Of a DNA stretch of 60,424 nucleotides, positions 7,274 to 37,200 are shown in pieces; position 1 is the first letter of the stretch; every line of letters begins with the position of its first letter. The notes beneath the pieces are model-generated. The model was not told the origin of the DNA. It saw only the letters and a program-made list of their open reading frames with translations, and ran no database searches. Location: sequence record OQ101257.1; one strand, 5' to 3'. The position numbers were made by a program, and so were the translations under genes. This DNA is from Acinetobacter phage Acba_15.

Positions 7274-7288
7274 TAGTGTTCAAACAAG

Positions 7289-7616: not shown

Positions 7617-8356
7617 CTAGTTTTATTTCTAATGCATTCCAGATTCCTAATGACCTAATAGATAACGGACATATGGCTAAGATGAAGGGTGCAGCTTTGC
7701 CTTGTTATCTTCTCATTGTTCGTAAAACGCGTGGCTGGAATAAACAAGCAGATAGCATCAGCCTATCTCAGTTTGTAAAAGCAACTGGATACAACAAGGA
7801 TACTGTACAAAAAGGCCTATTAATTTTGGAAGAGATGGGTGTAATTATCCGCCTTGAAACTGACAAACAAATTAATGAATGGTCTCTAACTGACCAGATA
7901 ATTACCACTGAAAACCATACTAAAAATTCGCCTAGCGAAAATTTAGCTATGCTAAAAAATAGTACGGAACCATACGAAAATTTAGTATCAAACCATACTA
8001 AAAATTCGCCACACAATAACAATAATAAAAACAAAGAAAAACAAGGGGTGGGTTACTCAGAAAACTTTGAGAAGTTCTGGTCTGCATATCCAACTTGTAA
8101 ACGTAAATCAGACAAGTCTGGCACTTATAAAACTTTCACAAAGCATGAAGGAAGTTTTGCGATTGAAACACTTCTTTCAATTCTTGAAAAACAAAAATCT
8201 GATGTCTCTTGGACAAAGCAGGATGGTGAGTTCATTCCATCACCTAGCACTTGGTTAAACCAAAAACAATGGGAAAACGAGTATTGGTTTCAGGTCAACA
8301 GCTCTGTGGTAGCTCCTGATTTCTCTAATGCCCAATTGCAATATGGAGACTGGTAA
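7613..8356 (+). CDS. Phage replication initiator, O-like, copy 2.
   Basis: Position before the helicase, shared C-terminal YGDW tail, and internal iterons. Confidence 0.55.
   Translation: MTSFISNAFQIPNDLIDNGHMAKMKGAALPCYLLIVRKTRGWNKQADSISLSQFVKATGYNKDTVQKGLLILEEMGVIIRLETDKQINEWSLTDQIITTENHTKNSPSENLAMLKNSTEPYENLVSNHTKNSPHNNNNKNKEKQGVGYSENFEKFWSAYPTCKRKSDKSGTYKTFTKHEGSFAIETLLSILEKQKSDVSWTKQDGEFIPSPSTWLNQKQWENEYWFQVNSSVVAPDFSNAQLQYGDW
7910..8010. repeat. Iteron-like repeats inside initiator gene 2. Candidate origin.
   Basis: aaccatactaaaaattcgcc occurs twice, at 7913 and 7991. gaaaatttag occurs twice, at 7936 and 7975. Confidence 0.4.
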
Positions 8357-21836: not shown

Positions 21837-22028
21837 ATGCCAAGCCCTATTATCCAATATTTCCAATATGAACATTTACCTGAACATTTGCAGCAAGTTA
21901 GTAAGCCAATTGGTGATTTAGCTCGGCAAATGGATGAGCAACTTCCTGACGGGCCTGAAAAATCCACAGGATTAAGAAAGCTACTTGAAGCAAAAGATGC
22001 ATTTGTACGCCAAGCTTTAAGTAAATAA
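21837..22028 (+). CDS. Hypothetical protein of 63 aa, flanked by terminators.
   Basis: An ORF sitting between two hairpin plus T-run terminators. Confidence 0.3.
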   Translation: MPSPIIQYFQYEHLPEHLQQVSKPIGDLARQMDEQLPDGPEKSTGLRKLLEAKDAFVRQALSK

Positions 22029-22043
22029 TCATTTATAGAAATG

Positions 22044-22066
22044 AAGCGTCCTAAAGGGCGCTTTTT
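22044..22066 (+). terminator. Intrinsic terminator.
   Basis: Hairpin agcgtcctaaagggcgct plus ttttttattgcc. Confidence 0.5.
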
Positions 22067-22141
22067 TATTGCCTGCCGAAAGCGGATGCTAACGGCGAAT
22101 CCGGGCGGATGCCCATTTTGTATATATAGGTTGGATGACCA

Positions 22142-22909
22142 ATGAAACTTAAAACAGTAACAATCGACGGTAAAGTTTATGCGGAAGTAGACGGTGATAA
22201 GCCGATCTATATTCATGATGACGGCAAAGAAATGCCACATGATGCACCACACTCGGTAGCAACAATTGCACGCTTAAACAATGAAGCTAAAACACATCGT
22301 GAAGCCAAAGAAGCAGCCGAAAAAGCATTAAAAGCTTTTGAAGGAATTGAAGACCCAGCGGCAGCTAAAAAGGCATTACAAACAATCCAAAATCTCGATG
22401 ATAAAAAGCTGGTGGATGCCGGTGAAGTTGAGAAAGTTAAAGCTGAAGCTATCAAAGCAGTTGAGGAAAAATATGCCCCGATTGTTGCGCAACGTGATGC
22501 TCTAGAAGCCTCTTTACATAAAGAACTTATCGGCGGTGGTTTTGCTCGTTCTAAGTACATTCAAGACAACATTGCAGTACCTGTGGACATGGTTCAGGCA
22601 ACCTTTGGTCATCACTTCAAAATCGAAGAAGGCAAGGTGGTTGCATATGATCCGAACGGCGAAAAGATTTATTCACGTGTCCGCCCGGGTGAACTTGCAA
22701 ATGTTGATGAAGCTTTAGAGTCATTGGTTGGTGGATACCAGCATAAAGACTTAATTCTTAAAGGTGGTAAAGGAACTGGTGGCGGTTTTCAAGGTGGGGG
22801 CAAAGGTGGAGCACCTACTGGAATGAAACGCAGTGAAATGTCTGTTTCTCAGAAAGCAGATTACATCAAAGAACATGGCAATGATGCCTTCCTAAAACTA
22901 CCGAACTAA
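22142..22909 (+). CDS. Putative scaffolding protein.
   Basis: Ala/Glu/Lys-rich helical protein directly upstream of the capsid gene, with a Gly-rich C-terminus. Confidence 0.4.
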   Translation: MKLKTVTIDGKVYAEVDGDKPIYIHDDGKEMPHDAPHSVATIARLNNEAKTHREAKEAAEKALKAFEGIEDPAAAKKALQTIQNLDDKKLVDAGEVEKVKAEAIKAVEEKYAPIVAQRDALEASLHKELIGGGFARSKYIQDNIAVPVDMVQATFGHHFKIEEGKVVAYDPNGEKIYSRVRPGELANVDEALESLVGGYQHKDLILKGGKGTGGGFQGGGKGGAPTGMKRSEMSVSQKADYIKEHGNDAFLKLPN

Positions 22910-22936
22910 TCATTAAATATTTGGAGATAAGTAGTT

Positions 22937-23893
22937 ATGACTACGACAGTTAATTCAGACATGATCATCTATAATCAATTGGCTCAAACTGCTTATTTAG
23001 AGCGTTTGCAAGATAATTTGAATGTATTTAACCAAGCCTCTAATGGTGCAATTGTTTATCGCAATGAGATCATTGAAGGTGATTTCAATAAAGAAGCATT
23101 CTACAAAGTGGGCGGTAGCATCAAACATCGTGATGTGAATTCAACCGCCAAAGTAGTTCCAGAGAAAATTGGTTCTGGTGAGTCTGTAGGCGTAAAAGTC
23201 CCATATAAATATGGTCCTTATGCATCAACTGAAGAGGCATTTAAGCGCCGTGCTCGTACACCAGAAGAATTTGCTATGGTTGTTGGTTACGATCTTGCAG
23301 ATGCATTGGTTGCAGGCCGATTAGAGTACAGTTTAGCTTCTTTAAAAGCTGCTATTTCTAGCAATCCAGACATGGTTGCAAAAGGTAGTATCGTTGTTGA
23401 TGGCCGCAAAGCATTGACTCGTGGTATGCGAAAGTTTGGTGATAAGTTTGGCCGCATTGGCTTATGGGTGATGAACTCAGATACATATTTCGATATTGTC
23501 GATGATGCAATCACTAAGCAAATTTATGGTGAATCTGAAATCGTTATCTACGGTGGTTTACCGGGAACCTTAGGAAAGCCGGTCTTGGTGACGGACGCTG
23601 TAGGTGATAACGATGCTTTTGGTTTGCAGTATGGCGCTGTCACTGTAACTGAATCACAAGTACCGGGCTTCCGAGCTTATGACATCAATGATGAAGAAAA
23701 CTTAGCAATCGGTATGCGTGCTGAAGGTGCATTTAACTTAGATATTCTTGGTTATAGTTGGGATACATCGAAAGGTGAAAATCCTGACCTTACATTACTT
23801 GGTTCAAGCGCTAACTGGATCAAATATGCAACCAGCAACAAAATGACAGCAGGTACCTTACTTGATTTATCGGGTACAGCGACAACTGGTTAA
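22937..23893 (+). CDS. Major capsid protein (probable).
   Basis: 318 aa, in the position after the scaffold gene, with a strong Shine-Dalgarno sequence and a terminator downstream. Confidence 0.5.
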   Translation: MTTTVNSDMIIYNQLAQTAYLERLQDNLNVFNQASNGAIVYRNEIIEGDFNKEAFYKVGGSIKHRDVNSTAKVVPEKIGSGESVGVKVPYKYGPYASTEEAFKRRARTPEEFAMVVGYDLADALVAGRLEYSLASLKAAISSNPDMVAKGSIVVDGRKALTRGMRKFGDKFGRIGLWVMNSDTYFDIVDDAITKQIYGESEIVIYGGLPGTLGKPVLVTDAVGDNDAFGLQYGAVTVTESQVPGFRAYDINDEENLAIGMRAEGAFNLDILGYSWDTSKGENPDLTLLGSSANWIKYATSNKMTAGTLLDLSGTATTG

Positions 23894-23912
23894 AACCTAA
23901 AAATTAAAACCT

Positions 23913-23940
23913 AAGGGGGCTAATAAGCCCTCTTTTTTAT
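23913..23940 (+). terminator. Intrinsic terminator.
   Basis: Hairpin gggggctaataagccctc followed by ttttttat. Confidence 0.4.
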
Positions 23941-23958
23941 TATTAAGAGAAAAGCGCC

Positions 23959-24624
23959 ATGAAGATTATCTATACACGCATTGCAGCAGCGGCTGCATTA
24001 GAGACAGGCATTATTGCTAACCCTGACTATTATGAAAACCCAAATTTGAAAGCAAAAGAGGTAATTATTTACGGTAATTATCCAAAGATTCAAAAGGATT
24101 ATGAATCTTTGGAAGTTCCAGTTGAAGTTCGTAAGTTGGAAGTGCCACAAAAAACGACTTTGGCCACAGTAAATGTCGCAGTGGGAATTACCCCTGAACT
24201 TCAAGCTGTGATGGATGATGCAAAAGCTGAATGTGAAAAGGTAGTTGAAGAAAACACTCAGCTTAAGCAGAAAATTGCCATCTTAGAGCAGGCCGGTGGT
24301 AACCAGTCAGAGTTGTTATCTGAAAATTCACGATTAAAAGATGCAGCAGTCTTAGCAGATAAAGCTCTCAAAGATGCTGAAGCTCAAGTGGTCGGTATAA
24401 AAACTGAATTTGAAGCTTTTAAAAATGATATTCCTGCAATGCAGGCACGTATTGCTGAATTGGAAGCTGGAAAAGCGGCAGAAAACCCAGCTACAGAAAC
24501 GGCAGCTAATGATTTTGAAAACTGGTCAAATGATCAATTAAAAGAGTATTTGGCTAGTAAAAACATTGGTTACAAGCCGTCTGCAACAAAAGCAGAACTT
24601 CTTAAATTAATCCCGAAGGAATAA
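23959..24624 (+). CDS. Hypothetical coiled-coil structural protein.
   Basis: Long helical region LKQKIAILEQ... Confidence 0.3.
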   Translation: MKIIYTRIAAAAALETGIIANPDYYENPNLKAKEVIIYGNYPKIQKDYESLEVPVEVRKLEVPQKTTLATVNVAVGITPELQAVMDDAKAECEKVVEENTQLKQKIAILEQAGGNQSELLSENSRLKDAAVLADKALKDAEAQVVGIKTEFEAFKNDIPAMQARIAELEAGKAAENPATETAANDFENWSNDQLKEYLASKNIGYKPSATKAELLKLIPKE

Positions 24625-24628
24625 TGCA

Positions 24629-25018
24629 ATGAGCTTTATTACTGTAGATGACGCAAATTCAATTTTGGGCAGCGATTTTGCACCAGACAGTGATAAGGCT
24701 CGTCTGGTGAAGCTGGCAAATGTGTGGATGAAAAACAGAATTGGTTTTGTACCAGATCCAATTGATCCACTTCTTAAGGACGCGGCTTGTGAAATTATCA
24801 AAGGAATTCTGGCCAAAGTAATTTATAACGGCAAAGAGCAGCAGTTGAAGCGTAAGAAAGTTAAGGCTGATTCTGTTGAGTCAGAAAAAGAATTTCAAGA
24901 CGGATCTGAAGCAATCTCTAGCTTTGAACAGATAGCAATTGATTTTATTGATTCACTTGATTTGAAAGATCCAAATGCAAGTTTTAATGGCTTTGGCATA
25001 CCACTTTACAGGGCATGA
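24629..25018 (+). CDS. Head-tail connector (gp6-like) protein (probable).
   Basis: N-terminus is ITVDDANSILGSDF...LI. Call based on position. Confidence 0.35.
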   Translation: MSFITVDDANSILGSDFAPDSDKARLVKLANVWMKNRIGFVPDPIDPLLKDAACEIIKGILAKVIYNGKEQQLKRKKVKADSVESEKEFQDGSEAISSFEQIAIDFIDSLDLKDPNASFNGFGIPLYRA

Positions 25019-25019
25019 T

Positions 25020-25388
25020 ATGGGCTTACGTGACGAAATTCAGGCAGACATTGCTGAAGCATTTAATGATGATTTAGCAGATGCCATTCATACCTTTACA
25101 TGTGAGCGGATCTCTAAAACGAATTGGGATCCTAAAACTGAAACTTATGTTGAAGTTAAAGAAAACTATTCTGGCCGTGGCGTTCTGTTTGGCTCATACA
25201 GTCAATATGAGATCCAAACACTTGGAGTACTGGCCACGGATAAAAAGGCAACCGTGCTTCAAAATGAAGTAACTATGACTCCAAAAATTGAAGATGAATG
25301 GTTAACTGCCTTAGGCTCATTCCGGGTAATTAATATTCAACAGGATCCAGCTAATACTATTTGGAAATGTCAGCTTCGAAAAGTGTAG
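25020..25388 (+). CDS. Head-tail joining protein (hypothetical).
   Basis: ORF with the start set at MGLRDEIQ, overlapping the previous stop. Confidence 0.3.
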   Translation: MGLRDEIQADIAEAFNDDLADAIHTFTCERISKTNWDPKTETYVEVKENYSGRGVLFGSYSQYEIQTLGVLATDKKATVLQNEVTMTPKIEDEWLTALGSFRVINIQQDPANTIWKCQLRKV

Positions 25389-25396
25389 GGGCTAAA

Positions 25397-25801
25397 ATGG
25401 TTAATCCTGATTATGTTCCTGAATGGTATATCTCGCCTTTTCAACATGTGCAGTACACGCTTGCTCGAAATCAACTACACATGGATTTGTTATTTGAAGA
25501 TATGGATAAGGCCGATCAATTTTTGGATATGGGAGCGGATGCGCAAGTTAGTACTTTTTCTGATGGTGCATATGCAATCGTCCAAATTGGTGATACGGCG
25601 GATAAAGACCGAATTCAAGTTTATGGATTGCTTTTACATGAAGCTGTTCATGTCTGGCAAAAGATTAAAAAGCTCATGGGTGAACGAGAACCGAGCTCTG
25701 AGTTTGAAGCTTATTCAATTCAGGCGATCGCTCAAGACCTTTTTAAAATGTATGAAGAAAGCGAGGTGAATGATGGGATGGAAGGGGAAAAAGCCAACTG
25801 A
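25397..25801 (+). CDS. Head-tail joining protein (hypothetical).
   Basis: ORF only. Contains a probably fortuitous HEAVH motif. Confidence 0.3.
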   Translation: MVNPDYVPEWYISPFQHVQYTLARNQLHMDLLFEDMDKADQFLDMGADAQVSTFSDGAYAIVQIGDTADKDRIQVYGLLLHEAVHVWQKIKKLMGEREPSSEFEAYSIQAIAQDLFKMYEESEVNDGMEGEKAN

Positions 25802-26141
25802 ATTTAGTTTTGATGTGTCTAAAGCAGCAGAAGACCAGGTGAAGCATATTGTTATGGATACTGTGCAATCCTTAGTTAATTTAAGTCCTGTTGATACTGG
25901 AGCATACCGTGCTTCACATATTGTTTCGGTTGGATCTGCTGATTTCGGCGTGCGTGAACCTGAAACAAACCCTATTAACGACGCAGCGATTCAGGCAATG
26001 AAGATTAAGTTAGGTAATTTGGTTTATATCCAGAACAATAAAGCTTATGGACCGCGCTTAGAAAACGGCTGGTCTGATCAAGCACCACAAGGTATTTATG
26101 GCCTCACGTTTAACTTTATTTCTCAAAAGTACGGTGGCTAA
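25770..26141 (+). CDS. Tail-completion or neck protein (hypothetical).
   Basis: ORF in the head-tail joining cluster. Confidence 0.3.
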   Translation: MMGWKGKKPTEFSFDVSKAAEDQVKHIVMDTVQSLVNLSPVDTGAYRASHIVSVGSADFGVREPETNPINDAAIQAMKIKLGNLVYIQNNKAYGPRLENGWSDQAPQGIYGLTFNFISQKYGG

Positions 26142-26142
26142 A

Positions 26143-26541
26143 ATGGCAATGACTTTAGAGCAGACAAGGCAAGCTATTATTGATCGCATGCAAAGCTTTA
26201 CGGGTATTGCTCAAGAACGGATTCAGTATCCAAATGCACCTGACTTTACTGTTCCAACAAAAGGTGTATGGTGCCGTTTAACGATTGCAGGTGGCCCGAG
26301 TTTTACCTCAGGCATTGCAGATAAGCCATGTACACGCCGTACCGGTAATATCATGATCCAATGCTTTGACCGATTACATACTGGAGAGAAGGCCGTAACG
26401 GTTCTAAGCGATGCATTGCTGGCTCATTTTGAATATTTCACAATCGAACACTTAGAATGTTTGAATGGCCAATCTATTTATGCGGGTAAAGATGCTGATT
26501 TCATTCAGTATAATGTGAGCATTGGGTACAAGGTGAATTGA
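26143..26541 (+). CDS. Hypothetical structural protein.
   Basis: Start set at the ATG after the previous stop. Confidence 0.3.
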   Translation: MAMTLEQTRQAIIDRMQSFTGIAQERIQYPNAPDFTVPTKGVWCRLTIAGGPSFTSGIADKPCTRRTGNIMIQCFDRLHTGEKAVTVLSDALLAHFEYFTIEHLECLNGQSIYAGKDADFIQYNVSIGYKVN

Positions 26542-26542
26542 T

Positions 26543-26761
26543 ATGTCATGTATGCTGACTTTAGAAGAAATCGAAATTAAACGGCAAGAACTGGAACGGC
26601 ATCTTGAAGATGTTATGTCTGTTGAGTTGAGCAAATGGCAATCTGAAAACAAGCTATGTGTTTCTGATGTGAATATACGCTTGGCTAATGTTGTTAGTCT
26701 CGGAGGGCCTAAACATAACGTTGTTACTGGAGTAAGTGTCGATTTAGATAATGAGCTTTGA
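26543..26761 (+). CDS. Hypothetical protein.
   Basis: ORF only. Confidence 0.3.
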   Translation: MSCMLTLEEIEIKRQELERHLEDVMSVELSKWQSENKLCVSDVNIRLANVVSLGGPKHNVVTGVSVDLDNEL

Positions 26762-26869
26762 GTTCAAGAAAAAGCTACTGCAAGGCGATTATTTTTAATG
26801 ACCTCAGCATATTATCATTTGTGATTACATTCTGTTACAGTAATGGAAATTTATAACAAATGGTAAAAC

Positions 26870-27391
26870 ATGAAAAAATCAACTTTAGGCTGGGGTGCCG
26901 CAGGATTAGTAGCTTTAGGGATTTTTGGTTCAGGCAATGATAACTCTCCAAAACAAACTTCAGACTCAGAAAATGCGCAGAGTGCAGTAGAGGAAGTTAT
27001 CGAATCAAAATATATCAACACTAATTCTTTAAATATTAGAGATAAACCAAACGGTCAAGTAGTAGGAAAGTTAGGACGTGGGGAAAAAGTTGATATTTAT
27101 GAGATGAAAGGAAACTGGGCACGTATTTCCTTAAATTCCTCATCACCTCAGTGGTTATCAACAAAGCTATTATGTGAAACGGATGGCTGTTTTAAACAAA
27201 AGTCTCGATCAACCACGTCAAATAATTATCAGGCCTTAAAATCTCATCCTCATCATTCTGAAAGAAAACAGAAAAAAACCTACTACGATAGTGATTGTTC
27301 ATGTGCTGTGGTGGATTATTGCGTGGGTCCTAGAGGTGGGCACTACTGTATTACGAGTGGAGGAAACAAGAGATATAAACCTAGATATTAA
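26870..27391 (+). CDS. Secreted SH3b-domain protein with a Cys-rich C-terminus. Moron.
   Basis: Signal peptide MKKSTLGWGAAGLVALGIFGSG. SH3b-like segment LNIRDKPNGQVVGKLGRGEKVDIYEMKGNWARI. Eight Cys in the last 60 aa. It has its own upstream gap and a downstream terminator. Confidence 0.5.
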   Translation: MKKSTLGWGAAGLVALGIFGSGNDNSPKQTSDSENAQSAVEEVIESKYINTNSLNIRDKPNGQVVGKLGRGEKVDIYEMKGNWARISLNSSSPQWLSTKLLCETDGCFKQKSRSTTSNNYQALKSHPHHSERKQKKTYYDSDCSCAVVDYCVGPRGGHYCITSGGNKRYKPRY

Positions 27392-27445
27392 TTAATTTGA
27401 ATTATGAGACCTCCATTTTGAGAGGTACTTTATGTCTTAATCACT

Positions 27446-27467
27446 ACCACCTCATCGGTGGTTTTTT
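27446..27467 (+). terminator. Intrinsic terminator.
   Basis: Hairpin ccacctcatcggtgg followed by ttttttt. Confidence 0.55.
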
Positions 27468-27487
27468 TATGTCTATAGGAATCACTT

Positions 27488-27841
27488 ATGAGCAATTTTG
27501 TATTTAAGCGTGGTGACACTTTCAACTTAAATCTTCAGCTAGTTGATATGGATGAAGCCCTGCAATATCCACCAGATGATGTGCGCCGTGCAATTGATCT
27601 TACAGGTTATACCTTCACTTCACAGGTTAAAGCTCTGGCTGATGGTGCTACTGTGGCCACATTAACTTGTACTGCATTAAGCCAAAGCACACAGAAAGGG
27701 TGGCTGAACATTAAATCTAGTGCAAGCACTGCAACTTGGCCTTTAGGGCTGTGTCAGATGGATATTAAAGCTGTAGTTAGTGGCACTACACAGCACACTG
27801 AAACTTTGACTTTCCAAGTGATTGACGGGGTAACAGCATAA
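27488..27841 (+). CDS. Hypothetical tail protein.
   Basis: Call based on position. Confidence 0.3.
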   Translation: MSNFVFKRGDTFNLNLQLVDMDEALQYPPDDVRRAIDLTGYTFTSQVKALADGATVATLTCTALSQSTQKGWLNIKSSASTATWPLGLCQMDIKAVVSGTTQHTETLTFQVIDGVTA

Positions 27842-29196
27842 TGGCAAATCTTGTTTTTAAATTTAGTTGGGATCACCGGCCATTCCCGTATAACTCGGCT
27901 CAGGGAAAACGGCAATTCATGCTGCCATTCGCTTCAGGCATTCCTAATCTGGCACCAAACTTTTCGCAGGTCCAAGGTACTGCTGCAGTCTCTCAAGGTG
28001 GTACTGGGGCGACAACTGCACTAGATGCTCGAAATAATCTCGGAGCAGCAGAAAAAGGGGTGAATAGTGACATTACAGAGCTAAAAGGATTAACCAAGGC
28101 TATTGCAATTTCTCAAGGTGGTACCGGTGCAACAACTCCATCCGATGCTCGAACTAACTTAGGGCTTGGTAGTGCCGCGACTAGAAATGTTGGTACTACA
28201 GCTGGTAATTTGATAGAAGTTGGCGGTTTTGGAATTGGTGGAGTAGGCCAAACTTTTGAAAGAAAAATGATTACGGGAGTAAACCTAGATTCTGTCGTTA
28301 GCTATGTATTGTTATTTCCTTATTCTGTCAGAAGCTCACCCAATCGAAACATGTTTGGTGAGCTAGTGTTTTCGAGGGGTGATTCAGGCTCAGCAAATCA
28401 ACATTCGAGAACTTTAGTATCAATTCAGCAAGCATATGATCGTGTTACAGCTCGGTTTATTAGTATTGGTGTAACAACTCATATTTCAGGTATGGCTGTA
28501 GTTAAATATCAAAATGTAGACTATGTTGCCATTCGAAGAACAGCAAGTTCTTCAACATCGGCATTTAGATATTTTTCCGGTATTTCCAATATTACATCTG
28601 ATAATTATTTAGTTACTGTTCATACAGATGACGTTGTTATTGTCAGTGAGATACCTGTTGTAATTGAGCAGCTAAGAACATCTGCGAATACTTCTGTGGA
28701 TTCCAACGGTTTCATAAAAGCAGCATCACCAGTAGTTAAGCTATTTAACGACCATATCGAGCTCAATAATGATGCAGAAAAGCAGCCTATTGAATTTAAG
28801 AAAGTCGATGTAGGCGACTATTTACTTAAAGGCTCTTTAGGCTTTGCTCAAGAAGGTTGGTATATCGAAGTACCTAAAGACGCAAACGGCAACACAATCG
28901 TTGCAGTAGTGTATGACACCCTAGAAAATGGTGACATCTCAATTAAAACTTACAAGTGTAAGTTTGATTTTGAACTTGCTGCTGTTGTGGCAGATCACGA
29001 GAACCCAATGGACATTCCAGAAGGCCGCTGGATTGATATCCGTCTGCATGAAGAACCTGAACCAGAACCTGAGGTTGAAGAAACTTTGAGTGAAACACCA
29101 GTGGATTTCCAGCCTACTAACTTATCTCAGGCAGTTGCTGCAGCCATGAATGGCGTGGAACCGCCAGAAATCTCAGACACAGACGAAACACTTTAA
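27841..29196 (+). CDS. Fibre-like structural protein with N-terminal SQGGTGATT..DAR.NLG repeats.
   Basis: Two copies of the tail-fibre-type motif, and an acidic PEPEPE C-terminus. Confidence 0.4.
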   Translation: MANLVFKFSWDHRPFPYNSAQGKRQFMLPFASGIPNLAPNFSQVQGTAAVSQGGTGATTALDARNNLGAAEKGVNSDITELKGLTKAIAISQGGTGATTPSDARTNLGLGSAATRNVGTTAGNLIEVGGFGIGGVGQTFERKMITGVNLDSVVSYVLLFPYSVRSSPNRNMFGELVFSRGDSGSANQHSRTLVSIQQAYDRVTARFISIGVTTHISGMAVVKYQNVDYVAIRRTASSSTSAFRYFSGISNITSDNYLVTVHTDDVVIVSEIPVVIEQLRTSANTSVDSNGFIKAASPVVKLFNDHIELNNDAEKQPIEFKKVDVGDYLLKGSLGFAQEGWYIEVPKDANGNTIVAVVYDTLENGDISIKTYKCKFDFELAAVVADHENPMDIPEGRWIDIRLHEEPEPEPEVEETLSETPVDFQPTNLSQAVAAAMNGVEPPEISDTDETL

Positions 29197-29199
29197 TAA

Positions 29200-29222
29200 C
29201 CCGCTTAAAAAGCGGGTTTTTT
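29200..29222 (+). terminator. Intrinsic terminator.
   Basis: Hairpin cccgcttaaaaagcggg followed by tttttt. Confidence 0.55.
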
Positions 29223-29248
29223 ATTGCCTAAATTTTGGAGAACCATAA

Positions 29249-30166
29249 ATGAGTTCAGGCGCAAAAATTCGATTATATGCTTGTGAAGAAGCAGTTTTAG
29301 GAACAACTCCAGCAAACCCGATCTGGTACACAGTTCGCCGTGTAAGTGATGGTTTATCTGAAAATGTTTCTACTGAAGAAAGCAGTGAAGTGGTTGATTC
29401 ACGTTTTCGCCAAGGTGGGGTAGTTACTGAAGCAGAAGTAGCAGGTCAGTTAGAGTTTGAATTATCACTTGGTACCTTTGATTTGTTCTTAAGTGCTTTA
29501 GCATTCAATAACTGGGCGACAAACAGCTTAACAATTGGCGGTGCTGTTCGAAAATCATTAACGTTAGTTAAAGTTTTTGAAGATATTGGGCAGGTGTTTA
29601 TTTACCGTGGAGTTCAGGTCAATTCTGGTGAAATTACTATCCAGACTACAGGAAAGATCACTGGTAACTTTGGTCTTGTAGGTAGCTCATTTACTAGACA
29701 GCAAGTCAACCCTGTTGTAAATCCGATTGCAGCTTCAACACGTCCACTGGTCAGTATGCCAAACGTGGAAAACTTGCTTGTAAACGGCCAGTCAATTCAA
29801 GGCAAAGCATGTCTACAGTCTTTGACCATTTCTATTAACAATAACCTTGAAGCAATCCGTTGTATCGGATCTGGTAAATACACTCCAGAGTTTTATTTAG
29901 AGAAGATGATGGATATCGAAGCGAATGCTTCATTCATGTTCTCGGCCACAGCTGCTGGTTGGATTGATGCAATCAAAACCCGTGATGTGTTTACACTGAC
30001 CTTCGACATCAGAGACAGCAAAGGAAGTAAATATTCGTTCAACTTCCCGCAATTGGAAGTCATGGAAGCCAATCACCCGGATGGTGGGGGTGATGACATC
30101 ATTACTGTAGACATCAACTTTGCTCAAGTTCGTACAGCTCCAACGATTGTACGTGCTCTTGTGTAA
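29249..30166 (+). CDS. Major tail (tube) protein (probable).
   Basis: 305 aa, located directly upstream of the chaperone pair and the tape measure, which is the lambda V position. Confidence 0.45.
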   Translation: MSSGAKIRLYACEEAVLGTTPANPIWYTVRRVSDGLSENVSTEESSEVVDSRFRQGGVVTEAEVAGQLEFELSLGTFDLFLSALAFNNWATNSLTIGGAVRKSLTLVKVFEDIGQVFIYRGVQVNSGEITIQTTGKITGNFGLVGSSFTRQQVNPVVNPIAASTRPLVSMPNVENLLVNGQSIQGKACLQSLTISINNNLEAIRCIGSGKYTPEFYLEKMMDIEANASFMFSATAAGWIDAIKTRDVFTLTFDIRDSKGSKYSFNFPQLEVMEANHPDGGGDDIITVDINFAQVRTAPTIVRALV

Positions 30167-30185
30167 TCAGCTTAATCAGTAACAA

Positions 30186-30213
30186 AGCCTATGAAATTCC
30201 ATGGGCTTTTTTA
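30186..30213 (+). terminator. Intrinsic terminator or attenuator.
   Basis: Hairpin agcctatgaaattccatgggct followed by ttttttatt. Confidence 0.45.
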
Positions 30214-30236
30214 TTCCTAAAATTTCAGAGGTTGTT

Positions 30237-30752
30237 ATGGCTTTAAAAGTCGGAATTATTAAAAGCTCAGACGTATCAAAATGGTGTGAATACAAAGGTG
30301 CTGATGGAGAGGTACAGGCAGAATTTAAAGTCCGTGGTATCGCTTATAAGCCTTTTCAGGTAGCGATTGAACGAGCAGGAAACCAGATCTCGTCTAAAGG
30401 CTACGATGTAATGGTCAAAAATGAAGATGCCAAGCTTTATCACGAGTTGTTAATGGATGCATGCGCCGCCCACTTAATCGAAGACTGGAAAGGTGTGGTA
30501 TTTGCCGAAATCGTAGACGGTAAAACGGTCGAGTCCGAAAAACCTTATACACCTGAGAATGCCTCAAAGCTTCTTAATCTTGGTGATATTGGTATTTCGA
30601 TCTGGCTATTTATTAAAGAACAGGCCCAGAAGATTCAGGAAGAAGCAGACAAGGACAAGGCTTTAATTCTGGGAAAGTCATCGATCTCTACAAATACCAA
30701 AAAACGTATGCGTCGAAAACGCCGCACGAAATCGAACAAATCAAGTTCTTAG
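30237..30752 (+). CDS. Tail assembly chaperone, lambda gpG-like.
   Basis: Its position is before the tape measure. It overlaps a start-less -1 frame ORF and contains a G GGA AAG slippery site. The track start at 30201 lies inside the terminator, so the real start is at MALKV. Confidence 0.55.
   Translation: MALKVGIIKSSDVSKWCEYKGADGEVQAEFKVRGIAYKPFQVAIERAGNQISSKGYDVMVKNEDAKLYHELLMDACAAHLIEDWKGVVFAEIVDGKTVESEKPYTPENASKLLNLGDIGISIWLFIKEQAQKIQEEADKDKALILGKSSISTNTKKRMRRKRRTKSNKSSS
30671..30677 (+). other. Programmed -1 ribosomal frameshift slippery heptamer G GGA AAG.
   Basis: It is in the zero frame of the chaperone gene. The -1 frame stays open with no ATG from 30617 to 30997. Confidence 0.6.
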
Positions 30753-30997
30753 GTGGTCGTATTCCTGATCCACCAGAATATTCTTATGCGGCTGATTCCA
30801 TTCTTGCGGCATTTAGCACTATTTGCAGATCCAGACGATATGAGCAGGGTATCCCATTATCTTTAGATCAACAGGCAATCAATGTCTATGCTGAGCATAA
30901 TGATTTACCAGTAGCTGCTCATATCTTTAATGACTGTATTTTTGCATTGGATAATTTGTTTTTGGATGAGGTGCATAAGAAAGCGAGTAAAAAATAG
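30671..30997 (+). CDS. -1 frame extension giving a gpGT-like fusion product. The frameshifted chaperone runs 30237..30677, then continues in the -1 frame to 30997.
   Basis: ORF of 108 codons without a start codon, overlapping the 3' end of the chaperone gene. Confidence 0.5.
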   Translation, partial: GKVIDLYKYQKTYASKTPHEIEQIKFLGGRIPDPPEYSYAADSILAAFSTICRSRRYEQGIPLSLDQQAINVYAEHNDLPVAAHIFNDCIFALDNLFLDEVHKKASKK

Positions 30998-31006
30998 AAA
31001 TCTATA

Positions 31007-31270
31007 TTGCATTTGGCAAAAATCAAAGATAAATTGATGTCTCATACTTCTCACTCTTTGAGTAAGGGCCGCCGGTCGAATGTCGGGCTTTTTTTGTTAA
31101 GTGGTAATTCACCTACAAAGGAAAGCATGATGAAGAACCTTACTCATGCAGAACCCTATTTCATCATGCGTGAAAAAAAGGAACTGCAAAAGAGACTTTT
31201 AGATAAGAACAATGAACTATTGGAATTGATGCAAAGAGTTGAAAAATACTTGATGAGGATAGAAAAATAG
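31007..31270 (+). CDS. Hypothetical small protein. The start is uncertain and may be at 31127.
   Basis: ORF only. Confidence 0.25.
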   Translation: MHLAKIKDKLMSHTSHSLSKGRRSNVGLFLLSGNSPTKESMMKNLTHAEPYFIMREKKELQKRLLDKNNELLELMQRVEKYLMRIEK

Positions 31271-31287
31271 AGAGTTGTCTTTCTACA

Positions 31288-31322
31288 AAAAAGCCCGCCT
31301 AATCAGCGGGTTTATTTGTTTC
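31288..31322. terminator. Bidirectional intrinsic terminator.
   Basis: A-run, then hairpin gcccgcctaatcagcgggt, then a T-run. It lies between convergent genes. Confidence 0.5.
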
Positions 31323-31589
31323 TAGCTCTTCAATTCGTGCCATTAGTTTTTCAATTAAAACAGTTGCGCGATCTAAATTCTTATTGCTCATATCTATAAG
31401 CTTCATAACTTCAGTTGGGATTTTCTCATTTATATCAAGGCTTTCTTCAAGTCTTGCAACTATTTCAGCAGTTAAAGATCTTTCATTGTCTTTAGCCTTC
31501 TCTTCTAATAATTCTTTGAGCTTGCTAGGCATTCTAAAATTCACTTGAGAATAATCTTTAGCCATGGACCATATACCGCAAATTGACAA
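31299..31589 (-). CDS. Ribbon-helix-helix repressor, Mnt/Arc-like.
   Basis: VNFRMPSKLKELLEEKAKDNERSLTAEIVARLEESL is the Arc/Mnt RHH pattern. It is transcribed divergently from the next RHH gene. Confidence 0.5.
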   Translation of the reverse strand: MSICGIWSMAKDYSQVNFRMPSKLKELLEEKAKDNERSLTAEIVARLEESLDINEKIPTEVMKLIDMSNKNLDRATVLIEKLMARIEELETNKPAD

Positions 31590-31687
31590 TTAACTAATCA
31601 TATATAGCAAAAGTGCTTTACACAATGAAGCAAGAGTGCTATAAAGTAAAAATGCTATATAGCAAAGGTGCTTTATTGGAGGTAAAA

Positions 31688-31849
31688 ATGACAAGGCATG
31701 ATAAGCAAATGAACGTTCGTATGGCACATGAAACAGTAAGTGAATTAAAGGAGGTAGCAAAGAAAAATCGTCGATCGGTAACGGCTCAGTTAAATCAAAT
31801 CATAGAAGACTGGCTAAAAGAACAGAAACAACAGGATGCGAAAGCATGA
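31688..31849 (+). CDS. Ribbon-helix-helix repressor, Arc-like.
   Basis: MNVRMAHETVSELKEVAKKNRRSVTAQLNQIIEDWL. Confidence 0.5.
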   Translation: MTRHDKQMNVRMAHETVSELKEVAKKNRRSVTAQLNQIIEDWLKEQKQQDAKA

Positions 31850-31928
31850 AATTAACAGACAACAAAAAAGCCCCTGAATCTTGGCGGATGCGGAGCTTGA
31901 TTGAAGTCATAACAGTGAGATATGAACT

Positions 31929-32315
31929 ATGTTAAATATACCATTCGAATTTGATAAAGACAAGGTTCTAGATATTACCGATCTACTGCCAACCATTCCT
32001 ATTGAGATTCTTGAGAAAGTAACAGATCAAAACGGTTCTGTTTCGGCAGATGAAGAAAATTTTCTAAAATCTGTAGGCCGTGCTGCGGAAAATGCAAACC
32101 TTCCAGTTTTAAAGGGATTAAGTGCTATTGGTGTGTTGCTTGCCAACGCAAATGAAGAAATACCGTTAGGAACATTTAATGATGTTGGCTGGTTAATACA
32201 ATCGCTTAGCGAACAAGTTTTAGCTATAAGCCATATGCAAGGGTTCGCTGACTTACTTCTTGATGCAAGTAATAAGAACAAAATCTCTAAGGGCAATGGA
32301 GGGCTAATGTCATGA
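31929..32315 (+). CDS. Hypothetical protein.
   Basis: ORF overlapping the ant start. Confidence 0.3.
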   Translation: MLNIPFEFDKDKVLDITDLLPTIPIEILEKVTDQNGSVSADEENFLKSVGRAAENANLPVLKGLSAIGVLLANANEEIPLGTFNDVGWLIQSLSEQVLAISHMQGFADLLLDASNKNKISKGNGGLMS

Positions 32316-32851
32316 ATATGCTTATTAACCAAGAAACTTTAATTCCAGTTGTTGATAGAGATATTGGCGGAGAGGTTCAGCCTTCTGTTGATGCACGTGA
32401 ATTGCATAAGTGGCTTAAATCTGGGGAAATGTTTGCCACATGGATAAAAAAACGGATTAAGACCTATAAATTTATTGAAAATGAAGACTATATTAGTTTT
32501 TTGGTAAACCCCAAAAAACCTAATGGTGGGCGTTCTTCAAGAGAATACATATTAACTATTGATATGGCTAAAGAGCTGTCAATGGTTGAAAACAATGAAC
32601 AAGGTCGGGTTGCAAGACGTTATTTTATTAACTGTGAAAAAGCATTGCGACAAACAGCATTTGGATTAATGAACCAATTCAACAGAGCTGTATTAGAGTT
32701 TGAGAAGTTTACTGAAATTGCTTCAAATGCTGGAAGAACATTATGTTTGGTTGGTAAGCAGTACAAACCTCAAGCATTAAGTAAGGTTGAGGAGCTGAAG
32801 CAAAAGATTACGCCTTTGCTCCCATTCGAAGAAGACGAGATGCAAGCTTAA
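32312..32851 (+). CDS. AntA/AntB-family antirepressor.
   Basis: IPVVDRDIGGEVQPSVDARELHKWL...FATWIKKRIKTYKFIENEDY...REYILTIDMAKELSMVENNEQGRVARRYFI matches the AntA domain pattern. Confidence 0.6.
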   Translation: MNMLINQETLIPVVDRDIGGEVQPSVDARELHKWLKSGEMFATWIKKRIKTYKFIENEDYISFLVNPKKPNGGRSSREYILTIDMAKELSMVENNEQGRVARRYFINCEKALRQTAFGLMNQFNRAVLEFEKFTEIASNAGRTLCLVGKQYKPQALSKVEELKQKITPLLPFEEDEMQA

Positions 32852-32860
32852 AAGAATTAA

Positions 32861-32885
32861 GAACCCGCCAAGTGCGGGTTTTCTT
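32861..32885 (+). terminator. Intrinsic terminator.
   Basis: Hairpin cccgccaagtgcggg followed by ttttcttc. Confidence 0.45.
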
Positions 32886-32947
32886 CATGTGACATTTAGT
32901 AACCAGTTTGTTAAAGTTAGTACACTTTATAACAAACGGTGAAATTC

Positions 32948-33454
32948 ATGAAAAAGATTATTTTTATTCTAGCTGCACTAGGAATTATTACAAGTCATGG
33001 GTGTATTACTATTCCTTCTCCAGAAGAAGTCCAAAGAAATGCTTATAAAGGATATTCTGAAGTGGTAGAACTGAATAGTATTCCTAAAGATCAAATATTT
33101 GAACTTTCAAAAATCTGGATTGCTAAATCTTTTAATTCTGCAAACAATGTCATTCAGTATGCGGATAAAAATACTGGAATAATCATAGGGAAAGGTAACT
33201 TTTCTCTTAAATGCCCTGACAATGTAAAAGGTATGAATTGCTTAGCTTATACATCAACTAAAGCAGAATTTACTTTGAAAATAGAGATAAAAGATGGCAA
33301 ATCCAGATTGACCTTTAGTGATGTACACCAAGCTGTAAATAACTACCCATTTTATGACAATATTTCTAAACCTATTATTGATTCCCAGATTAAAGGGATA
33401 GTTAAGAACTATGGTCTTGATATCATAAATCAAAAGAATGATTCAAATTGGTAG
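32948..33454 (+). CDS. Lipoprotein. Moron.
   Basis: Signal peptide MKKIIFILAALGIITSHGC with a lipobox-like ITSHGC, in an AT-rich gene. Confidence 0.45.
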   Translation: MKKIIFILAALGIITSHGCITIPSPEEVQRNAYKGYSEVVELNSIPKDQIFELSKIWIAKSFNSANNVIQYADKNTGIIIGKGNFSLKCPDNVKGMNCLAYTSTKAEFTLKIEIKDGKSRLTFSDVHQAVNNYPFYDNISKPIIDSQIKGIVKNYGLDIINQKNDSNW

Positions 33455-33513
33455 TAATTTGCTAATAAATAAAAGGTTAAATACTCATACTTAATAGTTT
33501 TTAAATACCAAAT

Positions 33514-33584
33514 AGCCCACTCATCGAGTGGGTTTTTTAATACCCAAAACAAAACCCCAGTAGCGCTAACTACTGGGGTTTTTC
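33514..33584 (+). terminator. Two tandem intrinsic terminators.
   Basis: Hairpin agcccactcatcgagtgggtttttt and hairpin aaaaccccagtagcgctaactactggggttttt. Confidence 0.5.
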
Positions 33585-33625
33585 ATTCCACCCACCGACG
33601 AAAGTAAGAGGAAAGTAAATCTATA

Positions 33626-33775
33626 TGGAGCATTTTAAACCAATAGTGGAGCTTATGAAAGTGTCTATTGAAAAGTATGGCTTATGGCAGACAATTATTG
33701 CCTTTTTAATTTTGTTTTCCATACCAATTCTAATCTGGAAATTACCTGAAATCATTGCAGCGATTAAAGCCTAAA
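33626..33775 (+). CDS. Small membrane protein of 49 aa (hypothetical).
   Basis: Hydrophobic core IIAFLILFSIPILIW, followed by a terminator. Confidence 0.25.
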
Positions 33776-33825
33776 ACCGACCTATCAATGGTCGGTTTTT
33801 TATTACCGAAATTTTGGAAGCAAAT

Positions 33826-34173
33826 ATGACGGATAAATCCAAATGGTTTGTTTTTAAGAAAAATGATCAAGTTTTTGGATGTTTCAGGATTAAGCCTTTT
33901 TCCGATCCTGAATTTGGTAAAGCCTATAAAATGCTTTGTACCAAAAAAAGTATTTTTAGAATGAGTGCCATGCGATCTGCCCAAGAGTTTGCAAAAATTA
34001 TCGCAACTCATCTTATACAGGATTGGGAAAATATTGAACTTTCAAAAACAGGAATAGCTGGAGAAAAGGAAACACGGTATTCGCCTCAATCGGCCTATCA
34101 GCTATTGATGTATGGAGATCTAGGGGCTGAGATAACTTCATGGATCTTGGAAAAGTCCAAAAGTATTGCCTAG
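33826..34173 (+). CDS. Second tail-assembly-chaperone-like protein, paralog of 30237..30752.
   Basis: THLIQDWENIEL...YSPQSAYQLLMYGDLGAEITSWILEKS aligns with AHLIEDWKGVVF...YTPENASKLLNLGDIGISIWLFIKEQ. Confidence 0.45.
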   Translation: MTDKSKWFVFKKNDQVFGCFRIKPFSDPEFGKAYKMLCTKKSIFRMSAMRSAQEFAKIIATHLIQDWENIELSKTGIAGEKETRYSPQSAYQLLMYGDLGAEITSWILEKSKSIA

Positions 34174-34233
34174 TTAAGACTCGATTTATTGCCGCCGCTT
34201 AAGGTGGTTTTTTATTGCCTGAAGGAAAGTCAA

Positions 34234-37200
34234 ATGGCTCAAGAAGCTCGCTTAGTAATTGTTATTGATTCGGAACGTGCGAAACGCACTGCACAAGACT
34301 TATCAGTTGAATTGGATAGCATCACCAAAAAAGGGGATTTCGCCTCGAAATCTATGGACCGGATGTCTGTAGCAACTCGTGCACTAGCAGGGTATATGGC
34401 TGGTTTATTAACAGTAGGTTCAGCCATTTCAAAGATGGATACATATACTGGACTACAAAACCGCCTTAAGTTGGTCACTAATAATCAAGTTGAACTAAAT
34501 AAAGCTACGGAAGACACTTTCCGAATTGCTCAAAAAACCTATTCAGCATGGGATTCTGTTCTACAGGTCTACCAGCGTTTTAGTGATAATGCCAAAACTT
34601 TAAACCTCACAATGGATGACACAGCACGTTTAACTGAAACAGTTTCTAAAGCTGTAGCAATTAGTGGTGCAAGTGCAGAAGCTGCTGATGCAGCTTTAGT
34701 TCAGTTCGGGCAGGCCTTGGCTAGTGGAACGTTGCGTGGAGAAGAACTTAATTCTGTAATGGAGCAAACCCCAGCACTAGCAAAGGCTATTGCTAAAGGT
34801 ATGGGTATTACTGTAGGTGAATTACGTTCAGTAGCAGCTGAAGGAAAAATTACTTCACAAGAAATTGTAAAAGCGCTTAGAAATGTAGAATCTGATGTTG
34901 ATGCTCTTTTTGCTAAAACAGATATCACAATCGAGCAGTCTCTCACACTCCTAAACAACGAGATCACAAAATTTGTTGGCGAAGCAGGTAAGGGAAGTGG
35001 TGCGGCACAGGTATTAGCTGGATCAGTTCAAACTCTTGCAAGTAATTTAGATTTAATTGCTGATGGGGCTTTAGTAGTTGGTATTGGATATATCACTCGT
35101 GCAATTTTGATGAAGAGCGCTGCTATTAAAGAGGGAATGGCTTCAACTTTAGCGAGCCGCCAAGCATCTGTATTAAATGCTCAAGCAGAATATGCAGAAG
35201 CTACCGCTGCTTTGAATGCAGCAAAAGCTCATCTCGCGAATGTGCGAGCAACAAATGCAGAAACCCAAGCTAAATTTGGCGCAACAGCGGCAGCAACTCG
35301 ATACGCACAAGCACAGGCAGCAGTAACTGCTGCTACAAATGCACAAACAGCAGCTCAAATTAAGCTAAATACTGCAACTTCAATTGCAGGGAGACTAGCT
35401 AAAGGGGCGTTTGGATTAATTGGTGGGTGGGCTGGAGTTGCAACATTAGGAGTAATGGGATTAGCGGCAGCCTATTCTTATTTTAATAATAAGGCAGAGG
35501 GGGCAAAGCAAAAGCTTGCTGAACAAGCTAAAGTTGCTGAGAAAGCTGATGAGGAGTTAAAAAAATTAACTGGCAATGATAAGGCTAAAGCAGTTAATGA
35601 TTTAACTACTGCTTTTAATGCACAAAATAAAGCATTAGAGAAATCATCGCGTGCTGTAGGGTCTGCATTAATTGATATCGAGAACTATGCACGAGGAAAT
35701 AGGGAGGTTGAAAAAATTTCCCAAGAAGCGAGAACTGGAACTATCAGCTATACAGAAGCCATTGAACGTCTAAATAAAATTAAGTTGCCTACAGATCTAT
35801 ATGAAAATCTGAAAAAACAGGCTGCGCAGTATGATGACAATGCATCTAAAGCAAGTTTATCAGCTGAGAAACTTAAATTATTAAGAGTTGAAGTGAAACT
35901 TGGAGGTAATGAAGCACAAAATGCGGCAATTCAGCATCAAAAACAAGCGGATGCTTTAGGAAATACTGCTACTGAAGCAGAAAAGGCAACTAAGGCTTTG
36001 CAAGATTATCAAGCCAAGCAAAAAGATAGCGTTATTGATTCAATCTATAAATCAGGTTGGCTTGATAAAGGTTACACTGTTGCTCAAGCTAATGCCATTT
36101 TAGAACTGCAAAAAGCTAAAGGAATGAGTGCAATTTTGTCTAAAGATGAAATTGATAGCGCACTTAGAAATCTCAAGATCATCGAAGAACAACAGGAGCG
36201 AGAAGATAAATTAACTGAAGCTAAAAGAAAGCAGACGCAGGAAATTGAAAAACAAGCAAAACTTACTAAACGCTTGGTCGGTATTTCCGGTCAATCCGGT
36301 ATTGGTACTGGTCCACATCTTGACGTCCGATATGGTGGCTCATTGTCAGGTCAGAAAGTTTCTAATGAACATCTGGCTCGATTACAGGCGGGAGGAAAAC
36401 CTTTAACTTCCTACAAGATCAGTTCTAATTATGGTCCACGAAAAGCCCCAACTAAAGGGGCTTCTTCATTTCATAAAGGTATTGATTTTTCAATGCCTGA
36501 AGGAACACCAATCACGACCAATGTTGCTGTGAAAGATATCAAGACATGGTATGACAGCAAGGGAGGTGGTTATGTCAGTGAAGTGATCTTTGAGGATGGA
36601 GTGTCTCTTAAGCTTCTACATCAATCTCCCAAGATGCAGAGCAAGGTGAAAGGTGGTGCAAGTAAAGGAAGTGATAAAGCAGCTGGTGATATTCAATCTC
36701 AACTTGAACGTCAACAGGATTTGCAACGGTCACTTGAAAATGAGGTGGCTAGTGAAGTCGGACGGATTAACAATAATAGAAAGGCAAGACTGGAGGATGT
36801 TGATAAAGCAAACTTTAGCCCGGAACGTACTGCAGAAATAAAGGCGGAAATAAATCGTCGTGCAGATAATGATATTGCTATAGCCAAACAAGCCCTTAGA
36901 ACGAAATTGGAAGACTATAAGGAGTTCCAGAAAACCGAGGAACAGTTACTAGAAGAGTCCTTTAACCGTAAAAAGTTCAATGCAGCTCATGACCTTGAAT
37001 TAAGTAAGTTTGAGCAGAAGCAAGCTGTTGAATTGCTGGAACAGCAAAAACAGCAAGAGTTAGGGTTATTAAAACTAGCTCAGGAACAGCGGTTGTTTCA
37101 AGCCCGTTTATCTCTGCTTTCTGAAACGCAAGCCATGCAGGAACGTTACAGACTCGAACGGGAGGAAATTCTTAAGAATACCAAGCTTTCTATAGAAGAG

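Follow-up and report, generated by a model that had tools for sequence, protein, structure and literature searches.

In this study we examined a 60,424-nucleotide stretch of DNA from Acinetobacter phage Acba_15 (sequence record OQ101257.1; this whole stretch is called the window below), in which a coding sequence at 26870..27391 on the + strand encodes a 173-amino-acid (aa) protein with an SH3b domain. On balance it seems probable that this gene, here called the SH3 gene, is a phage moron: a self-contained, optional cassette whose product would be an exported, two-headed envelope adaptor, borrowed from the host and of benefit to the cell that carries the phage. As a genetic element the gene is a typical moron; it is common, has already been catalogued as PHROG 2459 and carries a generic annotation in thousands of genomes. 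What is new, judged by sequence comparison, is the recognition of its C-terminus as a large, strictly C-terminal, exported-protein domain that usually accompanies an SH3b domain and has neither a Pfam model nor a solved structure nor a known function.

The open reading frame (ORF) for this protein was claimed in an earlier sequence-only reading of the same DNA, and it is indeed present in the ORF list, with the peptide strings quoted there. It belongs to PHROG 2459 over its full length (E=9e-89, residues 1-172 against profile positions 1-171 of 171). PHROG 2459 is the protein's own family, catalogued from phage genomes with no function assigned, so that it supplies a name without a mechanism; in public records the protein is called only 'SH3 domain-containing protein'. 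The identical 173-aa sequence occurs there on at least 1000 contigs. The same records hold dozens of 'partial' GenBank copies of 59-162 aa at contig ends. Draft assemblies frequently break in or beside the SH3 gene, as is expected where the related prophages of one genome diverge at a cassette boundary.

The phage, a Vieuvirus-type temperate siphovirus of Acinetobacter baumannii, is 99.6% identical to Acba_1, Acba_4 and Aclw_8 across positions 22000-34000. That it is temperate agrees with the earlier reading, in which the gene was called prophage-encoded. The gene had also been placed in the head-tail joining region, and this is correct: by PHROG annotation the upstream order is head-tail adaptor, head closure, Neck1/tail completion, tail terminator (26098-26541, phrog_179) and a 72-aa ORF, and the SH3 gene then stands before the tail genes. 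Downstream follow a 117-aa ORF, a 451-aa tail fibre protein and a 305-aa protein (phrog_290, 'minor tail protein') whose counterparts in Acba_1 and PhabP_R1 are annotated as 'major tail' or 'tail tube' protein.

The evidence for a discrete cassette comes from pairwise alignment with Acba_16, a phage deposited as a water isolate. The two share 99.8% identity over the region, and Acba_16 has no SH3 gene. Homology ends at 26749 and restarts at 27443, and the accessory cassette therefore spans 26750..27442 (693 bp; the features of the cassette and its flanks given here all lie on the + strand). Position 26749 is three codons short of the end of the 72-aa ORF, and the cassette replaces these codons together with a spacer of ~60 bp; the gap between the 72-aa and 117-aa ORFs is 730 bp with the cassette and ~65-108 bp without it. 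As in known morons, a near-identical pair with and without the gene (Acba_16 against the window or Acba_1) thus has precise junctions. The base composition of the cassette is likewise that of a moron, with a GC content of 35.6% against 39.7% and 41.6% in the flanks, although the difference is modest.

The distribution of the gene is patchy, as the sequence-only reading had proposed to check. By tblastn the protein is found in 9 of the 53 phage records that share the structural region. We also surveyed the slot in 80 IMG/VR loci anchored on the 117-aa ORF, 76 of them informative; these were the best 80 of 385 matches, so that the survey is biased towards close relatives. The 72-aa ORF together with the SH3 gene occupies the slot in 30 of the 76 loci, the 72-aa ORF alone in 28 and neither gene in 16, where a 72-bp junction is left. 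In the remaining two (L055:1785-2893 and L021) a different cassette is present, composed of a Rha/antirepressor-like 192-aa gene and ORFs of 88 and 66 aa. Since another cassette takes the same position in two related prophages, the slot is a general recombination hotspot for accessory genes. The 72-aa ORF (26543..26761; phrog_1707, function unknown) is an independently variable accessory gene that is found in 58 of the 76 loci and accompanies the SH3 gene in every case, a pattern which suggests nested insertion at a single slot. The earlier reading had named universal conservation of homologues here as an observation that would refute it, and this is not seen, given so patchy a distribution. 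It had also named detection of the protein in virion proteomics; no virion proteome was found.

Outside this slot, prophages in A. defluvii, A. guillouiae and A. bereziniae have homologues with 39-50% identity, placed where the late-regulator region meets that of the small terminase. In Pseudomonas the tail is joined to a different body, and the genes for these proteins are found at the lysis/umuDC end of prophages. An 80-aa protein consisting of a signal peptide and the tail alone is encoded on the same strand as, and two genes downstream of, a CI-like repressor. In Pasteurella phage Pmp3 a 207-aa lipoprotein carries the C-terminal module in the tail-gene region. From these positions we conclude that the gene is mobile between accessory slots of different prophages. 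Intact SH3 copies with 78-79% protein identity were found in an ordinary chromosomal context in two A. calcoaceticus genomes, ANC 3811 (L095:8001-8792) and ACIN00260 (L096:8001-8503), at a syntenic site. Their neighbours are a BLUF-like gene or a 386-aa restriction-like gene on one side and a transporter gene on the other, with no further phage genes nearby. Behind the relic copy no more than the initial ~30 codons of the 117-aa ORF remain, so that here the moron has outlived its prophage; by its sequence context the A. calcoaceticus copy is a domesticated relic of a decayed prophage.

The patchy distribution, the use of other slots, the chromosomal relic and the intactness of all copies together argue for a dispensable moron and against a part of the virion, and genome comparison thus shows a gene that is dispensable for making infective particles. 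It might be possible that such a gene has no function at all and is a piece of host DNA carried along as a passenger, without a selected role in phage or lysogen, and the patchy distribution would fit this, as would the lack of any known phenotype and of any report found in the literature. We regard this as highly improbable. All 30 complete copies surveyed are intact; they represent seven alleles with 10 synonymous and 3 non-synonymous variable sites. The exact protein is, as noted, on very many contigs, the C-terminal module is near-invariant among relatives that are 28-50% identical overall, and the gene is intact in both relic loci even though these differ by 15% at the DNA level. By these counts the gene is evidently under purifying selection and kept intact.

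The protein begins with a putative export signal or signal-anchor (residues 1-22; 26870..26935), recognised from the hydropathy profile: MKK is followed by a Gly/Ala/Leu-rich hydrophobic stretch of 15-17 residues (LGWGAAGLVALGIFG; best 11-residue Kyte-Doolittle window 2.12) and by GSG, and GSGNDN and an acidic segment come after the stretch. This N-terminus looks like a Sec signal peptide or signal-anchor. No lipobox is present in the 173-aa protein, whose first Cys is residue 102, and it is not a candidate lipoprotein. Homologues have at the same position a lipobox (P0062, P0064, P0065, P0067, P0072 and the Pmp3 protein), a cleavable-looking signal peptide or a transmembrane anchor. We infer that the product is exported from its N-terminal signal, from the relatives that are lipoproteins or have a transmembrane anchor, and from the Cys, which are even in number in all exported variants. 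Residues 1-39 and a low-complexity, basic linker (residues 116-139; 27215..27286; predicted local distance difference test score, pLDDT, <50) are disordered in an AlphaFold2 model built from a 22-sequence alignment, in which the confidence of the tail is intermediate; length and sequence of the linker differ between homologues.

Between these disordered parts lies the SH3b domain (residues 45-110; 27002..27199), which ends in a conserved pair, C102-x4-C107; C107 never changes within the family alignment, and C102 hardly ever does. The SH3b assignment of the sequence-only reading holds, as Pfam SH3_3, AlphaFold2 and Foldseek agree on it. Pfam SH3_3 matches residues 53-90 at E=2.5e-6 with 28.0 bits against a gathering score of 27, a marginal pass, AlphaFold2 gives a pLDDT of ~90 over residues 45-110, and Foldseek matches the model to solved bacterial SH3b domains in the PDB, such as 9ovi, 2kt8 and 6ilu, with a probability of 1.00. 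Its matches also include 2krs and N-terminal domains of NlpC/P60 proteins, and 6ilu is an endolysin binding domain. With the proteins of SH3_3 (PF08239: NlpC/P60 hydrolases, wall-binding domains of endolysins, E. coli YgiM-like proteins) the 173-aa protein shares the hidden Markov model score and the predicted fold. Unlike them it has no catalytic domain, and carries instead the CxxxxC pair and a four-Cys C-terminal module.

Phage lysins contain SH3b domains, as do some tail-associated lysins. Together with the endolysin binding domains listed by Foldseek and the location of the gene among head-tail connector and tail genes, this might point to a virion-associated accessory, a minor tail or neck decoration that grips peptidoglycan during infection. 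Such a role has in our view a probability close to negligible. The protein carries an N-terminal export signal, whereas proteins that are built into virions in the cytoplasm have none; some of its homologues are lipoproteins; and the gene is absent from Acba_16 and most related loci, has unrelated locations in other prophages and persists on chromosomes as a relic.

The most conserved part of the protein is the C-terminal four-Cys module (residues 140-173; 27287..27388; YDSDCSCAVVDYCVGPRGGHYCITSGGNKRYKPRY), delimited by its near-invariance in homologues. A C-terminus rich in Cys and Tyr had been described from the sequence, and the residue count bears this out, with six of the nine Tyr within the last 38 residues; the Cys number six (C102, C107, C143, C145, C151 and C160) and not eight as stated there. 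Across the 22 aligned homologues, with overall identities as low as 28%, hardly any change is seen in the last ~32 residues (CxCx5CVGPRGGHYCITSGGNKRY), and the module consensus can be written CxCx5CxGPRGGxYCITSGGNKRY. The sequence-only reading missed that this Cys-rich tail is widespread as well as nearly invariant and that it is found on chromosomal, non-phage proteins too.

A word-index search with the last 46 residues returned two proteins and was uninformative; we used instead an exhaustive search of 1.84 billion cluster representatives with a 42-position profile of the module. This profile matched 800 cluster representatives at E<=1e-3 and 217 at E<=1e-10. The full four-Cys pattern is present in 135 of the 142 top representatives, and in 134 of these it lies within 6 residues of the C-terminus; an SH3b region with the CxxxxC pair was found in 86 of the 142. 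Among the top module proteins that start with Met, 99 of 133 have a hydrophobic N-terminus. In many of the others a DUF4236 domain is followed by an internal transmembrane segment, and of the 41 representatives that lack a hydrophobic N-terminus 23 have an internal hydrophobic segment. Elsewhere the module is fused to a YdcA-like domain (NCBIfam NF007462-NF007464), to an HPGGLD..GCH..YHCH segment, to His-rich segments or to helical domains, and it also occurs alone. It ranges over gamma-, beta- and alphaproteobacteria in both chromosomal and prophage contexts. No conserved neighbour genes of module proteins were found in 14 non-Acinetobacter loci, and the gene is therefore a stand-alone unit.

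Modelled alone by AlphaFold2 (41 sequences), the module forms one beta-hairpin with a pLDDT of 72, for which Foldseek found no fold match in the PDB beyond generic beta-hairpins at E ~1 or higher. The second half of the module (GPRGGxY-x4-GxKxY, beta-hairpin) aligns with repeats of the PF08789 type (PBCV_basic_adap), itself a family of no known function; the hhalign probability of 97.9% is partly circular because the comparison set was drawn from the matches of the module profile itself. Proteins retrieved by this profile carry PF08789 hits, and a Mesorhizobium copy of the module reaches 19.4 bits against a threshold of 20.4. Neither the 173-aa protein nor its last 46 residues gave a PF08789 hit at E<=10, and we therefore call the module related to PF08789 and not a member of it. 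Unlike PF08789 it has four invariant Cys and an additional CxC-x5-C segment, and it is single-copy, strictly C-terminal and carried on exported bacterial proteins. A second relative is NF007464 (PRK10040.1-4), represented by a 112-aa hypothetical protein of Pseudomonas in which a YdcA-like domain precedes the module. The C-terminal module is shared (38.2 bits, profile positions 47-110), at a score far under the cut-off of 168 bits, which places the 173-aa protein outside the family; the N-terminal domain differs, being YdcA-like and not SH3b, and the family is uncharacterised.

The top match of the profile, P0077, is a protein of 3223 aa that is apparently eukaryotic by its sequence alone and contains 34 tandem, Cys-free GPRGGYFY...G hairpins. 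From these repeats the hairpin unit appears to reach beyond bacteria, with the four-Cys C-terminal form confined to exported bacterial proteins. The segment YCVGPRGGHYCITSGGNKRY (27326-27388, residues 153-173) weakly resembles the kringle core of hepatocyte growth factor, probably by chance. A kringle was considered after a PDB sequence search with the module profile and rejected as chance or convergence: the resemblance covers 22 columns, the per-domain E is ~0.9 and there is no fold support; the low whole-sequence E arose from a duplicated engineered kringle, and the six-Cys kringle pattern is not matched.

Taken together, these features suggest how the proposed moron might work. The product would go to the periplasm, where it would be released or remain tethered through its N-terminus. 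The SH3b head is predicted to bind peptidoglycan, and the basic, disulfide-stapled knuckle at the C-terminus to bind a second envelope ligand, which would have to be highly conserved because the module is near-invariant; the six Cys could form three disulfides. The same architecture of SH3b domain and knuckle is common in chromosomal proteins of Proteobacteria, which argues that the phage copy is a borrowed host envelope protein. Its biochemical role is thus probably a general envelope function which the phage has borrowed and not a phage invention. The most likely beneficiary would be the cell carrying the phage, whose wall or outer membrane might be changed so as to hinder wall-breaching agents such as superinfecting phages, or whose envelope might become sturdier.

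The knuckle can also be read in another way. The Cys/His-rich tail might bind Zn or Cu in the periplasm, which would make the protein a metal-handling or metal-sensing factor and not a structural adaptor; the spacing CxC-x5-C-x8-C, a His often conserved two residues before the last Cys and the fusions of the module to His-rich and HPGGLD..GCH..YHCH segments in alpha- and betaproteobacterial proteins are compatible with this. We consider it very unlikely, as most family members have Arg in place of this His (GPRGGRYC), and the Cys count, even in every exported module variant and zero in the non-exported repeats of the PF08789 type, would fit disulfide staples. A more far-reaching interpretation of the adaptor is that the tail defines an undescribed, Proteobacteria-wide class of exported envelope adaptors, near-invariant because they share one universal ligand or processing machine, and captured repeatedly by temperate Acinetobacter, Pseudomonas and Pasteurella phages as a new kind of exclusion or immunity factor that acts at the envelope. 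Such proteins might, for example, protect peptidoglycan when superinfecting phages attack it with their tail lysins, or against wall-degrading effectors of type VI secretion. In this wide form the proposal seems quite unlikely. A role in a lysis cassette was rejected, as the lysozyme-family gene lies ~26 kb downstream at 53282-53824; that gene is 89% identical to the 'lysozyme family protein' gene of PhabP_R1.

Returning to the moron as a factor of benefit to the carrying cell, the flanking DNA bears on how it might be transcribed. The upstream non-coding gap, estimated earlier at 110 bp, measures 108 bp and follows the stop of the 72-aa ORF at 26761. Within this 5' non-coding region of the cassette (26762..26869) the proximal ~65 bp (26806-26869) travel with the gene; they contain a conserved element, GATTACAYTCTGTTACWGTRA, and an A/T-rich TATAAC/TAAAAT box, and are conserved in the prophage copy of Acinetobacter sp. 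WC-141 and in the chromosomal relic copies of A. calcoaceticus. In the relics the terminator of the upstream gene precedes this conserved sequence, an arrangement that suggests autonomous transcription of the SH3 gene.

Downstream, a terminator-like hairpin of the cassette itself (ACCTCC-loop-GAGAGGT; 27409..27426) is weak (-7.7 kcal/mol, z = -2.06) and is followed by ACTTTATG; a comparable hairpin lies 3' of the 81%-identical copy in the WC-141 prophage. The 'strong terminator downstream' of the sequence-only reading stands in so far as a hairpin with a T-run exists at 27443..27470 (ACCACC-TCATC-GGTGGT + T7; 6-bp stem at 27446-27462), but its strength is modest (-8.8 kcal/mol, z = -3.3) and it belongs to the phage backbone and not to the gene, because it lies to the right of the cassette junction and is present in loci without the SH3 gene. 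This backbone hairpin stands immediately upstream of the 117-aa ORF and is kept in loci that have the 72-aa ORF alone, neither gene or the different cassette. Each slot cassette ends in its own hairpin and T-run directly before the shared backbone hairpin. As in other morons, the gene is thus followed by a terminator, here a weak cassette hairpin and then the backbone hairpin.

Several observations weigh against a cassette that serves the lysogen. In the 108-bp gap neither a tool scan nor a relaxed script found a consensus sigma-70 promoter on the + strand, the best match being 8/12, and no hairpin or terminator separates the 72-aa ORF from the SH3 gene; the gene may therefore ride on the late transcript and be silent in the lysogen. 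The expression data found are limited to A1S_1163, which has the same ordinal place in prophage CP5 of strain ATCC 17978 and was induced 11.7-fold by mitomycin C together with its neighbours (PMC3978071). The identity of A1S_1163 with the SH3 gene could not be verified; if the two are the same, these data would indicate late co-expression. PhabP_R1 was considered as a link to the ATCC 17978 prophage and set aside, since it carries the SH3 gene but is a wastewater isolate. On the side of function, the SH3_3 score lies just 1 bit over the Pfam threshold, PADLOC gave no hit to known defence or exclusion families at E<=1, and PHROG gave only the family of unknown function. Peptidoglycan binding, export and disulfides are predictions, and superinfection exclusion by the 173-aa protein is speculation. 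Our literature searches on an Acinetobacter SH3 moron or prophage gene, on PF08789/PRK10040, on the phage names and on A1S_1163 found nothing on the 173-aa protein.

It might hence be possible that the protein is a late-acting lytic helper, transcribed with the late structural operon only, whose periplasmic product serves productive infection with no conversion of the lysogen. For instance, it might guard the infected cell against wall puncture by secondary infection, in the manner of T4 Spackle, adjust lysis, or prevent the re-adsorption of progeny to debris. The SH3 gene is embedded in the late operon in the same orientation, with no upstream hairpin or consensus promoter; copies in other phages lie downstream of a Q-like antiterminator, right before the terminase genes; and the positional equivalent A1S_1163 is co-induced with its neighbours, subject to the doubt about its identity. 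Yet the intact A. calcoaceticus relic behind the terminator of the upstream gene argues for autonomous expression and a benefit to the host, the module-only relative two genes past the CI-like repressor on the same strand occupies a lysogen-expressed position, and chromosomal, non-phage homologues are common. We therefore hold a purely lytic role to be possible but doubtful, and prefer the moron that benefits its carrier.

Structural-operon morons such as HK97 gp15, which acts in superinfection exclusion, and lambda bor and lom were reportedly described by Juhala et al. in 2000 and Cumby et al. in 2012. Like these, the SH3 gene is a single optional gene between conserved late genes, present or absent in near-identical phages, with a lower GC content than its flanks, a hairpin after the gene and an envelope-located product, the last being a prediction here. 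Unlike them it has no recognisable promoter of its own, and it has neither sequence nor fold similarity to them.

A. baumannii is a priority pathogen, and through its prophages the exact protein is found on at least 1000 sequenced contigs. If the envelope were altered, the host range in phage therapy might be affected, as lysogens might resist related phages, and stress tolerance as well. Natural pairs such as Acba_1 and Acba_16 would make a simple start for a test: over the 12 kb of structural region compared they share >99% identity, and the SH3 gene is their main difference. The four-Cys module is among the most conserved short elements on exported proteobacterial proteins that lack a Pfam family, a solved structure and a known function, and its ligand, once found, would annotate hundreds of protein clusters together. 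If neither the envelope effect nor the significance of the module holds, the gene would be an ordinary moron of unknown function.

Some further features of the window may be mentioned. A second accessory region (30752-34189) separates the tail assembly chaperone from the tape-measure gene. It encodes an Arc-like repressor (31299-31589, minus strand), an AntA/ORF11CD3 antirepressor (32312-32851) and a DUF4468 protein (32939-33454); PhabP_R1 has there a DUF4258 toxin together with an XRE regulator. A single ORF of 3489 aa (41264-51733), located downstream of the tape-measure gene (34189-38208), is unusually large for this phage group, and at its counterpart position PhabP_R1 has a 1148-aa 'tip attachment protein J; host specificity protein J'. 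The early/immunity region (2364-8675) contains diverged direct duplications, 2364-2690/5557-5883 (97%), 5224-5557/8342-8675 (85%) and 3814-4158/6977-7320 (83%), which together resemble a tandem duplication of ~3.2 kb; a CI-like S24 repressor is encoded at 2707-3510 and possibly a second at 5899-6681, both on the minus strand. The left end (1-2358) encodes an N6 DNA methylase fused to an HSDR_N domain. At the other end (54449-60424) no host genes come after the integrase (54449-55645, minus strand); in their place stand minus-strand genes resembling an early operon, among them those for an AAA_24 protein and for a pentapeptide-repeat protein whose DNA has internal repeats. The window, in which no tRNA gene was detected, may be circularly permuted phage DNA or include a second element. 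After the major capsid gene, finally, a 221-aa protein (23959-24624, phrog_2101) is labelled in related phages as 'Ish1 domain-containing' or 'stress-responsive nuclear envelope protein'; by gene order alone it may correspond to A1S_1158, which bears the label 'putative signal peptide / moron' in the study of ATCC 17978.

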